From Escherichia phage CL1, in the sequence record OK040806: 64,000 nt of DNA; one strand, given 5' to 3'. A program made the translations under genes and the position numbers. Under the pieces are notes generated by a model. The model had not been told where the DNA came from. It was given only the letters and a program-made list of their open reading frames with translations, and made no database searches. Positions 12,367 to 14,221 of the stretch are shown in pieces (positions within the stretch are counted from its first letter, which is position 1; the number at the start of each line of letters is the position of its first letter).

Positions 12367-12410
12367 AATGACCTCAAAGTTATATTAAATTTTGTATTAC
12401 ATTGAGTATA

Positions 12411-12439
12411 AAAATAAGCTATAACACCTGACTTGTCAA
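12411..12439 (-). promoter_or_regulatory. sigma70-like promoter candidate for the secreted-protein gene
   Basis: minus-strand TTGACA (plus 12434-12439), 17-bp spacer, TATTTT (TATACT just downstream). Confidence 0.35.
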
Positions 12440-12710
12440 CAGATTTTATAGCTTATCTGGCAGATTTTTTATAAGGCTACTGCCATCCTTCCATACCAAA
12501 CCATACAAGACATAGCCATACCCGACCGTACATCACCTCACAACACTTAAAAACCCTTTTTAGAAGACTCTTAAGTGGTGTAAGTCTCATTTTTATGTAG
12601 CTGAGACTAACTACCCATACTATACCGGACCGAACCTCACCCTACCGGACCAGACACTACCATACAACACCTCACCATACCTCATTAAAAGACCCTCTTA
12701 AAGACCTTTT

Positions 12711-12733
12711 AAAAAGGAGCCTCCGAAGAGGCT
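12711..12733 (-). terminator. intrinsic terminator after gene 12745..13185
   Basis: minus-strand AGCCTC-TTCG-GAGGCT stem followed by U-run (plus-strand A5 at 12711-12715). Confidence 0.6.
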
Positions 12734-12744
12734 ACCTAGTCAAC

Positions 12745-13185
12745 TTAGAAAGGTTTTCTACGTTGCTTGTTAATGTTAGCTTTCATAGCAGCTAAATGGT
12801 TTTGCTGTTCAATCAGTCGTGAACGTTCTTGATGGCTAAGTGCCATAGTGTTCACATTCTCAATCGCTTGAGTAGCTTGCTTTAAAGCTCGACCAATCTT
12901 GCCAGACATTTTACGTTTTGCAATAGTTGCTTGATGCTTAGGTTCAACCACACGATAACCAACACCCATTGAAGCAACCAGATAAATCTTCTCTTCTTTA
13001 AGAAGCTTCTCAATAAACTTCTCAAGTCGGTTTAGGCGTGTAAGCGCATAAGCCTTCATTTCATCTTCGTACTTAACAATGTCACCTTGATAAGTTGGCT
13101 TCACAATACCTAAGAAGGTGTCCATCTCAGAATGTGATACAGTGTCACCGTAACTAAACTTTGCTGCTAATGCTTTTGTATTCAT
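12745..13185 (-). CDS. hypothetical protein
   Basis: 146-aa ORF followed by a minus-strand intrinsic terminator. Confidence 0.4.
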   Translation of the reverse strand: MNTKALAAKFSYGDTVSHSEMDTFLGIVKPTYQGDIVKYEDEMKAYALTRLNRLEKFIEKLLKEEKIYLVASMGVGYRVVEPKHQATIAKRKMSGKIGRALKQATQAIENVNTMALSHQERSRLIEQQNHLAAMKANINKQRRKPF

Positions 13186-13187
13186 AA

Positions 13188-13775
13188 TTAAACGTTACCT
13201 TCTGAAATAACTTCTACAGAAAAACGACCAAAGCGTGGACGCCAATCACCTACACCACAAAGATTGCCAGCATTTTCCAGAACCATCAGAAGTTCCTCTC
13301 TGGTGATTTGCTCTTCATCGAACATCAAACCGAACTCTACAGACCAGTCACGGAAGATTGGACGGTAACTCATAACTCGTGCTGTACCAATCTTAACAGA
13401 CTTAGCATAGATAAAGTCTGGATTCTTAGCAAGTTCTTGTGGGTTTGCTGGACAGTTCTTGATAGTCATTGGGAAGACTACATCTGTCAGCATAATGGCT
13501 CGGTCAATTACCTTACCAAGTTTGTTGAGTTTCGCACCAGACTTGATGCAAGCCTCAATCATCTCACCGTTCATAACAAAACCTAGCTGCTCATCGTAGT
13601 AACAAGAAGTTACCAGTTGGCTTTCTGCTAAGAGCGCATAGTCTTCGTCAGTCTTTTTACGTTTACTGGACAGAGACTTGTGATATTTTGTCAGAGGGTT
13701 TAATGGGTCTGACAGCGTATCAGCGTGGCTCAGGAAAGGACGAGTACCAGTGATTTTGATATTTAACAGTTTCAT
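13188..13775 (-). CDS. hypothetical protein
   Basis: start set at second ATG (MKLLNIK) preceded by GGAG; the upstream ATG lies inside that SD. Confidence 0.4.
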
Positions 13776-13790
13776 AGCATTTAGCTCCAC

Positions 13791-13820
13791 ACTTTAGTTG
13801 ATTGTTAAGTTGTTTGTAAA
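13791..13820 (-). promoter_or_regulatory. promoter candidate TTTACA-18-TAAAGT for gene 13188..13775
   Basis: minus-strand TTTACA (plus 13815-13820) and TAAAGT (plus 13791-13796); same hexamer pair as cassette A promoters. Confidence 0.45.
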
Positions 13821-14221
13821 GAACCCTCAACAGAAGACTCTTTAGAAACTTGGTAGATTTTTAACGTGGCTACTACCATCCACCCAGACTTTACTATACC
13901 TCACCAGACCATACCTGACCTGGCCGCGCCTTGCCTTGCCAAACATCACTTAAAAACCCTATGAGATACTTTATCGAGTATAATTTAAAGACTCTTAAGT
14001 GATGTAATCGAATTTTAATGTAGCTCCGATTAACTACCCATACCCTGCTTTACCTTACCGTACCGTACTTTACCCGACCGTACCGGACAATACTTAACCC
14101 TACCTCACCCGACCGGACATCACTTAAAAACCCTTTTAAAAGACTCTTAAGTGATGCTGGTGAGTACCCGTTGGTTTATGCTGCTCAGTATACTCACCAA
14201 ATTTTCTATGTCAACAACTTT
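13797..14221 (-). repeat. ORF-free element Q: two copies of inverted repeat CATCACTTAA...TTAAGTGATG with GGT-rich tracts
   Basis: IR copies 13944-14004 (41-nt loop) and 14118-14156 (19-nt loop); CCGACCGTACC motifs; promoter at 14187-14214 points into it. Confidence 0.5.
14187..14214 (-). promoter_or_regulatory. sigma70-like promoter TTGACA-16-TATACT directed into the ORF-free element downstream of ligase
   Basis: minus-strand TTGACA (plus 14209-14214) and TATACT (plus 14187-14192), 8 bp after the ligase stop. Confidence 0.5.

Follow-up and report, generated by a model that had tools for sequence, protein, structure and literature searches.

A probable type II VIPR locus in Escherichia phage CL1 and the Escherichia coli satellite genes matched by its guides

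Analysis of a 64,000-nucleotide (nt) stretch of Escherichia phage CL1 (sequence record OK040806; hereafter the window) indicates that two non-coding elements, P (12370-12744) and Q (13797-14221), together with the two genes lying between them, very probably make up a complete type II Viral Interference Programmable Repeat (VIPR) locus of the SUSP1 clade (12456-14214, minus strand) in a Felixounavirus. The system itself has already been described in two preprints of 2026 (10.64898/2026.04.26.720920, 10.64898/2026.04.26.720927), and the window adds an instance of it, not a new principle. Along the minus strand, which carries every gene around P and Q, the locus is composed of the guide RNAs (vrRNAs) Q1 and Q2, the effector gene vipr, the accessory gene vap1, and the vrRNAs P1 and P2, and is placed between the DNA ligase gene on one side and an open reading frame (ORF) of 127 aa on the other. 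Over its length it is 100% identical to the corresponding locus of Escherichia phage C600M2. The original prediction, made from the letters of the window, had described P and Q as paralogous ORF-free elements of the transcribed minus strand and candidate non-coding RNAs. This description stands: only short mechanical ORFs of 32-37 aa overlap them, and both consist of two tandem units of the same design, namely a spacer hairpin, then a pentamer tract, then a conserved 37-nt tail. The intervening ORFs, which it had treated as unrelated, encode vipr and vap1 and are the protein half of the system whose RNA half is P and Q.

Effector and accessory proteins

The deduced Vipr protein is identical in 192 of 195 residues (98%, E = 2e-128) to the chain deposited as 'SUSP1 Vipr protein' (PDB 36pp_D), membership of the SUSP1 clade being defined by >90% identity to SUSP1 Vipr and the VIPR effector as a minimal RAMP protein of ~20 kDa. 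A profile built from 52 Vipr homologues matched one solved structure, again PDB 36pp (E = 8.6e-79). Thirteen residues reported in the main text of one preprint to read GGY and to hold DNA (10.64898/2026.04.26.720927), namely H17, K33, R39, E71, M72, K82, G87, K88, R138, C173, D177, W178 and R179, are all present with the same numbering, and six of them (H17, K33, R39, G87, R138 and R179) are invariant or nearly so among the 52 homologues. The template-free AlphaFold 2 model of Vipr has a predicted local distance difference test score of 96.6, and its best-scoring PDB folds in Foldseek are RAMP subunits (Csm3/Cas7) from CRISPR complexes of types III and VII (E = 4e-5). The protein also matches phrog_4652, a family of unassigned function in PHROG. 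Vap1 is 99.3% identical to the ORF that follows vipr in SUSP1 and SUSP2, at the same position, and matches phrog_5926; in the main text of the preprints it is described as a predicted DNA-binding accessory protein, and as enhancing protection (10.64898/2026.04.26.720920). Pfam, including the families of the trp RNA-binding attenuation protein (TRAP), gave no family for vipr, vap1 or the 127-aa ORF.

The same effector family was recovered blind, starting from the repeats. A scan of IMG/VR for six consecutive exact GGTNN words returned at least 120 loci and, after removal of simple microsatellites, at least 48 loci with degenerate hypervariable arrays, often many in tandem. All-versus-all comparison of their ORFs revealed one family in 28 of the 48 unrelated array loci, among the matches listed; in most of these 28, with the same limit, its gene immediately precedes the arrays on their own strand. 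This family includes the window ORF between Q and P. In six unrelated metagenomic viral contigs, up to 13 tandem GGYNN guides lie beside phrog_4652 homologues with other spacer designs; in contig L072 (2172-3413), for example, 13 arrays lie in an ORF-free gap of 1.2 kb, with the spacer GGAATGGTTTAATGAATTTAATTT and no long hairpin. A second protein cluster stands beside arrays in seven loci, among the matches listed (L037 3257-3742, L081 11014-11511, L087 7855-8337 and others), and may be an accessory gene. An exact (GGTTA GGTTA GGTAA)n repeat is common to many viral contigs and is distinct from the hypervariable guides.

A CRISPR array has identical direct repeats of 23-50 nt, which alternate with unique spacers about as long, usually beside cas genes that include cas1/cas2. 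Here the repeat unit is 5 nt long, with conserved 37-nt tails and ~40-nt hairpins of several types, and no cas genes other than the RAMP-like vipr were found near the locus. Across the 64-kb window, no Rfam 15 family reached its gathering score and ARAGORN found no tRNA, in agreement with the earlier observation that tRNA-like features are missing from P and Q.

Guide units and their matches to a satellite island

All four units of P and Q are built on a strict pentamer, GGY followed by a variable dinucleotide (NN), in one register and in 11-17 copies per unit, against 9-16 YNNGG repeats in the VIPR definition; Q1 has 15 clear repeats, or 17 with the two in its hairpin arm. The original prediction had rightly called the minus strand GGU-rich, but the unit is this in-phase pentamer and not GGU-N-GG. 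A period-5 scan of the 64 kb, with a cut-off of 6 in-phase AC dinucleotides per 60 nt, found four arrays (12466-12579, 12585-12718, 13854-13962 and 14013-14156) with 8-12 such dinucleotides each, and a single other site (53380-53443) just at the cut-off. Over 82 distinct tracts from this and other phages the pentamer has the composition G 0.75, G 0.98, T 0.89 or C 0.11 (Y 1.00), N, N, and even among phages with 85-99% identity in the flanking genes the arrays are hypervariable. The CCGACCG[TG]AC motif noted earlier was recovered as well, its three matches (12522, 14074 and 14109) all lying within P or Q, with 0.02 expected by chance. Parsing of the sequence predicts vrRNAs of 92-122 nt (Table 1).

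Table 1. Features of the predicted VIPR locus in the window, in minus-strand order
Feature	Position	Strand	Remarks
Sigma-70 consensus promoter, TTGACA-16-TATACT	14187..14214	-	11/12 consensus positions; ligase stop at 14222 just before
Palindrome TGGTGAGTA-N24-TACTCACCA	14158..14199		Inverted repeat I11, 9 nt, 100% complementary; spans the -10 box
Spacer hairpin before Q1	14118..14156	-	CATCACTTAA/TTAAGTGATG repeat; 3' arm overlaps the first two pseudo-repeats
vrRNA Q1 repeat tract	14040..14124	-	17 pentamers: 15 clear GGY-NN + 2 within the hairpin arm; guide NN = (GA CC) CG GA AG TA AT CC AC CG AA AC AC AA AA AG AT
vrRNA Q1 3' tail	14003..14039	-	Pseudoknot GUAG/CUAC + hairpin AUCGGA/UUCGAU
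Spacer hairpin before Q2	13943..14005	-	11-bp arms, 41-nt insert with inner hairpin; inverted repeat I5, 100% complementary
vrRNA Q2 repeat tract	13886..13950	-	13 pentamers, register parse; guide NN = (GA TT) AA AA GC CA CA AT CT GA AT AA CT
vrRNA Q2 3' tail	13849..13885	-	Pseudoknot GUGG/CCAC + hairpin UGGUAG/CUACCA
Hairpin AAGAGUCUU-CUGUUG-AGGGUUCUU	13819..13842	-	From Q2 to the vipr ribosome-binding site; spacer-hairpin type; read from sequence
vipr	13188..13775	-	195-aa RAMP-fold protein; predicted to polymerise on GGY repeats, by analogy with SUSP1
vap1	12745..13185	-	146-aa accessory protein directly after vipr
Intrinsic terminator after vap1	12718..12733	-	AGCCUCUUCGGAGGCU + U-run; terminator scan
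Spacer hairpin before P1	12686..12716	-	AAAAGGUCUU-UAAG-AGGGUCUUUU; read from sequence
vrRNA P1 repeat tract	12617..12681	-	13 pentamers, register parse; guide NN = AT GA GT AT AG CT CC AG GA TC CC AT AT
vrRNA P1 3' tail	12580..12616	-	Pseudoknot GUAG/CUAC + hairpin GUCUCA/UGAGAC
Spacer hairpin before P2	12537..12579	-	CACUUAAGAGUCUU...GGGUUUUUAAGUG; inverted repeat I3
vrRNA P2 repeat tract	12493..12547	-	11 pentamers, register parse; guide NN = (GT GA) GA AC CG AT TA CT AT TT AT
vrRNA P2 3' tail	12456..12492	-	Pseudoknot AAGG/CCUU + hairpin UGGCAG/CUGCCA
Promoter of the downstream 127-aa gene, TTGACA-17-TATTTT	12411..12439	-	Marks the end of the locus

The earlier expectation of a structured RNA fails for the G-rich repeat tracts, which fold no better than shuffled sequence and appear unstructured. 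Q contains the inverted repeat noticed at the outset twice in full (14118-14156 and 13943-14005), and P contains one shorter copy with a 7-bp core (12537-12584). Owing to their G-U pairs, the spacer hairpins are markedly more stable as RNA of the minus strand, with predicted energies on the minus and plus strands of -15.7 and -9.4 kcal/mol for the hairpin before Q1 (z = -6.0 against shuffles; four G-U pairs, on the minus strand only), -11.1 and -5.3 kcal/mol for that before Q2, and -6.0 and -0.4 kcal/mol for that before P2. For the spacer of P1, the minimum-energy structure given by RNAfold over 12683-12718 is a register-shifted hairpin (-7.4 and -2.4 kcal/mol, z only -1.1); this spacer type recurs in a set of 69 distinct units from related phages. 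The spacer hairpins may serve as processing or boundary elements. In the tails, a pseudoknot joins the last G-rich repeat and the hairpin loop. Among 20 distinct tails, 90.8% of cells were paired, against 71% in shuffles and 24-42% with the partner slid; the pseudoknot helix was 100% paired, with three of its four pairs changed on both sides, and the hairpin stem differed wholly between tail types.

The four guides were scanned against 13 variants of a satellite island of E. coli under the target rule of the preprints: pairing with DNA is made by the NN dinucleotides, one target base in three is skipped, and natural targets, in competing mobile elements, match at least 80% of NN bases and usually have the skipped base at the codon wobble position. 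Q1 matches the sense strand of the first satellite ORF (184 aa) at 29 of 34 bases (85%), rising to 27/30 (90%) over its 15 clear repeats and to 24/24 over the 12 tail-proximal ones; P1 matches the antisense strand of the satellite tape-measure gene in four variants (24/26, 92%), and Q2 the sense strand of the large serine recombinase gene in three variants (21/26, 81%; core 19/22, 86%). All three sites are in codon phase: NN occupies positions 1-2, and it is the wobble base that is skipped. In a control run for Q1 and P1, 200 guides with shuffled repeat order reached maxima of 22/30 and 19/26, respectively, and skip lengths of 0, 2 and 3 gave background only. No self-target was found in the 64-kb window, where the best values of the four guides (62-73%) equal background. 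Across the clade, 54 of 76 guides with at least 10 repeats, taken from 37 loci, reached at least 80% on the 13 satellites, compared with one of 76 shuffled guides. The published targeting rule and target class are thus reproduced from raw sequence. No exact 11-dinucleotide target pattern of Q1 or P1 was found in IMG/VR; natural targets hold a few mismatches and sit in bacterial chromosomes.

When the locus was compared by BLAST with 5,426 complete E. coli genomes, 121 chromosomes proved to have a lone vrRNA-like sequence, composed of a repeat tract and a tail, with no vipr nearby; it lies inside an island of ~11 kb, and the Q2 tail type also occurs on these lone vrRNAs. The satellite island is present in 549 of the 5,426 genomes, inserted in a DUF72 gene, near yciI/tonB or near ymdF/wrbA, and encodes the 184-aa ORF, several small ORFs, an HNH endonuclease, tape-measure and baseplate proteins and the large serine recombinase. 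The island, exemplified by locus L160 (7240-18590) and 12 further variants, has at least three integration sites and a highly mosaic composition between strains, and it also contains a non-coding stretch of 2.5 kb and the one lone vrRNA without vipr. In the window, 57000-58340 is densely filled with short tandem repeats on TGTTAA/TGTTAG words (Tandem Repeats Finder rows 57036-58338), and the non-coding region of a satellite (locus L157, 15300-16100) has many similar ..ctgttaag.. and ..cgttaagagg.. words. These TGTTAA-type words may be regulatory sites common to phage and satellite, by which the satellite would sense its helper.

Related loci and competing explanations

Comparison of 37 related loci, from Felixounavirus, Mooglevirus and Suspvirus records and from IMG/VR contigs found via the ligase gene, showed 1 to 5 units, invariably bounded by the ligase stop on one side and the conserved 127-aa ORF on the other. 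Their 69 distinct units fall into a few discrete hairpin and tail types, with a hypervariable tract in between whose register is preserved; unit lengths differ in multiples of 5 nt (127, 132, 137 ... 157), and in 35 of 37 units the hairpin-to-tail distance leaves the same remainder on division by 5. Vipr and Vap1 are 97-99.5% and 99-100% identical, respectively, across the three genera, against 85-99% for the adjacent ligase, which suggests either a recent horizontal sweep of the cassette or a very strong constraint. Units are wholly missing from three of 29 related loci (L024 at 5080-5200 and two others; ligase 85-89% identical), where a TTGACA-17-TATACT promoter comes directly after the ligase stop, with the 127-aa ORF homologue behind it. 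It follows that the VIPR locus is dispensable and polymorphic for presence and absence. Homologous phages without the elements, which the original prediction had named as counting against it, do therefore formally exist, and they show only an accessory status, as expected of a system of conflict between genetic elements.

The two halves of the system can also be separated. Among Ounavirinae records, 117 encode Vipr and 230 carry vrRNA-like DNA, and about half of the Felix O1-like phages have kept vrRNAs and lost vipr; nine of the compared loci, Felix O1 included, have one or two units behind the same promoter and neither vipr nor vap1. Felix O1 itself has one promoter-driven unit (L004 2920-3030; AF320576, ~57.73-57.84 kb), and neither Vipr nor Vap1 was found anywhere in its whole genome. 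In Felix O1 a promoter and hairpin of the Q type precede a single tract, followed by a tail of the P2 type; a recombination event joining Q to P with loss of vipr-vap1 would be expected to produce this architecture. Orphan guides of this kind keep GGY as strictly as vipr-linked guides, and 4 of 11 match E. coli satellites, one of them perfectly (24/24). That orphan guides are functional, being loaded in trans by the Vipr of a co-infecting VIPR-positive relative, is a tentative and rather unlikely proposal, and under it P2, for want of a satellite match, would point to a second competitor. Such trans-loading resembles the situation of the satellites' own lone vrRNAs, which must also borrow Vipr; if true, guides would be exchanged or parasitised between genomes, a currency apart from the effector. 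In the main-text sections covered, the preprint makes no mention of Felix O1 or orphan guides, and literature searches on Felixounavirus non-coding RNA and Felix O1 transcriptomes, like the Felix O1 and UAB_Phi87 genome papers, gave nothing on these elements.

Several observations weigh against a complete, working VIPR locus in the window. The promoter scan finds no consensus promoter for P, which stands directly behind the vap1 terminator; P2 has no target in the 13 satellite variants, its best value (at most 68%) being at background level; and the Q2 match is barely above the threshold of the preprints. About four independent tail types stand behind the covariation of the tails, and the first two pseudo-repeats of Q1, Q2 and P2 may be spacer-hairpin sequence. 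Finally, the mechanism comes from two preprints, as given in their main text, that are not yet peer-reviewed (10.64898/2026.04.26.720920, 10.64898/2026.04.26.720927). The missing target of P2, the missing promoter of P and the loss of vipr from about half of the related phages would also fit a decaying remnant with non-working guides. We regard this as extremely unlikely: neither vipr nor vap1 is disrupted, both are nearly identical to SUSP1 genes that are active in experiments, positions 2 and 3 of GGY are conserved at 98-100%, and 81-92% of the NN bases of three guides agree with present-day satellite alleles.

Two of the functions first proposed for P and Q, a long structured leader and a protein sponge, find no support in these data. 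Read as a 5' leader, Q would control vipr-vap1, for instance through Vipr autoregulation, and P would be a 3' untranslated region or readthrough element, with no guides acting in trans; Q indeed occupies the interval from the promoter to the vipr ribosome-binding site, in which no terminator is found, and P comes directly after the operon terminator. However, satellite genes are matched in codon phase by the NN bases of Q1, Q2 and P1, far above shuffles in the control run for Q1 and P1, unit number varies from 1 to 5 in close relatives while vipr stays 97-99.5% identical, units are retained in vipr-less phages, and SUSP1 units yield discrete RNAs of ~100 nt, as stated in the main text of one preprint (10.64898/2026.04.26.720920). 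A leader in place of guides is accordingly very unlikely, and Vipr could autoregulate in addition to its guide function. A sponge or decoy would bind a host RNA-binding protein such as Hfq, CsrA, ProQ or a TRAP-like ring, or the 30S ribosomal subunit through Shine-Dalgarno-like GGUGA/GAGGU, and the period-5 spacing does recall TRAP sites, as many pentamers do Shine-Dalgarno fragments. The conserved word is nevertheless GGY, against GAG/UAG for TRAP, GGA in loops for CsrA and ARN for Hfq; the repeat number is not fixed; a sponge has no need for NN bases that match satellite genes and specify a DNA target; and the cognate binder is encoded between Q and P and has been solved bound to such repeats (PDB 36pp; main text of 10.64898/2026.04.26.720927). 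Nothing points to Hfq, CsrA or ProQ, and the sponge is hardly conceivable. The wider idea of a small protein-binding RNA survives in that a discrete small RNA is expected by analogy with SUSP1, its partner being the phage's own Vipr. We give almost no credence to arrays acting as DNA, whether as an R-loop-primed origin, a primase or helicase loading zone, a recombination hot spot or a packaging site. The tracts do show strong GC skew, lie within the block of replication genes and have a consensus promoter upstream, the cassette flanked by the units is present in some relatives and absent from others, and several GenBank records of relatives begin or end near the locus; yet the physical ends of UAB_Phi87 lie elsewhere, near the homologues of wV8 gp054/055 (PMC4837284), three related phages without the element still have the flanking genes, and the GGY register, the minus-only G-U pairs, the pseudoknot covariation and the NN-satellite matches would go unexplained.

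Further candidates were considered and rejected. A TRAP-binding attenuator would have 9-11 GAG/UAG triplets with 2-3-nt spacers, would overlap an antiterminator and would occur in a genome encoding TRAP; TRAP-like attenuation has the wrong triplet, a variable repeat number and no TRAP family match in the scanned ORFs of the locus, and a Shine-Dalgarno or tRNA-CCA sponge finds no support in the NN composition. An R-loop or ColE1/T4-type origin, or Ig-switch-like pentamers, would leave the strict register, the RNA-only G-U pairs and the unit-less relatives unexplained; primase sites of the T7 gp4 type (GGGTC/TGGTC) disagree with the base after GGT, which is not preferentially C; and two-tetrad G-quadruplexes do not need Y3, which is conserved at 100%, with G1 at only 75%. 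Chi or RecA-preferred GT-rich hot spots have the wrong period, and no GCTGGTGG was noticed on reading the arrays, no systematic search for it having been made. A resemblance of GGUCUUUAA in the spacer hairpins to boxA, which we presumed might mark an antitermination site, was dropped as made unnecessary by the VIPR assignment. A pac site or terminal repeat was rejected on the same UAB_Phi87 ends (PMC4837284).

Predicted mechanism and significance

For the VIPR locus of the window, a host consensus promoter would transcribe Q1 and Q2 and then, probably, vipr and vap1. This promoter, which the original prediction had correctly placed before Q and just after the ligase stop, is kept at the same place in Felix O1, Moogle and the vipr-less loci. 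P1 and P2 would be transcribed by readthrough of the vap1 terminator, with one promoter serving the whole locus, or from an unrecognised promoter; the three downstream guides of SUSP1 are expressed, according to the main text of one preprint (10.64898/2026.04.26.720920). Perfect or near-perfect palindromes of operator-like appearance, at 14158-14199 and 12414-12456, bracket both promoters, the second being a 17-nt palindrome (12414-12430 and 12440-12456, ATAAGCTATAACACCTG/CAGATTTTATAGCTTAT) around the promoter of the 127-aa gene. The palindrome at 14158-14199 is a possible operator, and both are perhaps operators for a Cro/CI-type regulator encoded a few genes downstream.

Judging from sequence and covariation, each vrRNA would be an RNA of ~90-120 nt, composed of 11-17 GGY-NN pentamers and the 37-nt hairpin and pseudoknot tail. 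One Vipr protomer per repeat would then sequester GGY and present NN, forming a helical filament, and the NN bases would pair with double-stranded DNA, skipping every third base, to form an R-loop triplex that blocks transcription. We infer this step here because of the 98% protein identity and the conservation of all named contact residues. The main text of the preprints reports for SUSP1 Vipr, a minimal RAMP protein, one protomer per repeat, a helical filament, gapped pairing, an R-loop triplex and transcriptional repression with no need for a protospacer adjacent motif (PAM), and describes vrRNAs of ~100 nt with 9-16 YNNGG repeats and an invariable 3' tail of ~40 nt, pseudoknotted in the SUSP1 clade; most guides of this clade target a satellite in E. 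coli genomes (10.64898/2026.04.26.720920, 10.64898/2026.04.26.720927). Small-RNA sequencing of SUSP1 gave transcripts of ~100 nt that co-purify with Vipr (main text of 10.64898/2026.04.26.720920). In the window, the matches seen for Q1, Q2 and P1 would direct repression to the first ORF, the integrase-type large serine recombinase and the tape-measure gene, respectively, and the phage would thereby silence a parasite that exploits its infection.

The locus resembles that of SUSP1 in its proteins (Vipr 98% and vap1 99% identical), genomic position, GGY-NN guides, hairpin-plus-pseudoknot tails, 1-nt-skip matches with the wobble base skipped, and E. coli satellite target. It differs in having two arrays upstream and two downstream, whereas SUSP1 has one and three, a count which our array scan of phiSUSP1 reproduced in agreement with the preprint main text (10.64898/2026.04.26.720920), and in its other NN sequences, which imply other target sites. 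With the Class 1 CRISPR backbones (Cas7 / Csm3 / Cmr4) it shares the RAMP fold, one protomer per fixed guide step, a thumb that periodically breaks guide-target pairing, and guides arrayed with conserved handles. The VIPR step, however, is 5 nt with three bases sequestered, against 6 nt with one base flipped in CRISPR; its guide information is non-contiguous (2 per 5 nt) and its target is read 2 per 3 nt; and type II VIPR is phage-encoded, without a repeat-spacer array, cas1/cas2, PAM or nuclease. Like the TRAP sites of Bacillus, the tracts consist of triplets with 2-nt spacers in 9-11 or more repeats, in an unstructured RNA that wraps a protein oligomer; unlike them, they do not carry the GAG/UAG triplet in a fixed number of sites for a closed 11-mer ring, with spacers devoid of information, and TRAP, a non-homologous protein, works by attenuation and not by DNA targeting. 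In the promoter-early stem-loop (PeSL) cassettes of T4-type phages, promoter/hairpin modules are likewise repeated around small gene cassettes that come and go. PeSLs have neither pentamer guides nor a cognate RAMP protein, whereas the flanking repeats of the window phage are functional RNAs by the present assignment. VIPR has been proposed as an ancestor of CRISPR effectors in the main text of the preprints (10.64898/2026.04.26.720920, 10.64898/2026.04.26.720927).

Such loci are currently annotated as a hypothetical protein with unannotated gaps, or as 'direct repeats' and a 'possible StbAB binding site'. In the public records KT184315 (KhF3), NC_012749 (wV8) and MN850605 (fjerdesal), for instance, vipr is labelled hypothetical protein and parts of the guides 'direct repeat ... 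possible binding site of StbAB', 'DR_4' or 'repeat_region'. In-phase GGYNN tracts beside a phrog_4652 gene provide a diagnostic signature for their annotation. VIPR is a very unusual way for RNA to read DNA, using two of every five bases of the guide and two of every three of the target, and this biology is remarkable and very recent. Relative to the main text of the preprints, the present analysis adds the targets of the window guides, the size and spread of the satellite family and the vipr-less orphan guides of Felix O1-type phages; targets and orphan guides are small but testable additions. The guides point to identifiable genes in a satellite found in about one in ten complete E. coli genomes, which opens this phage-satellite conflict to direct testing in a phage of K-12.

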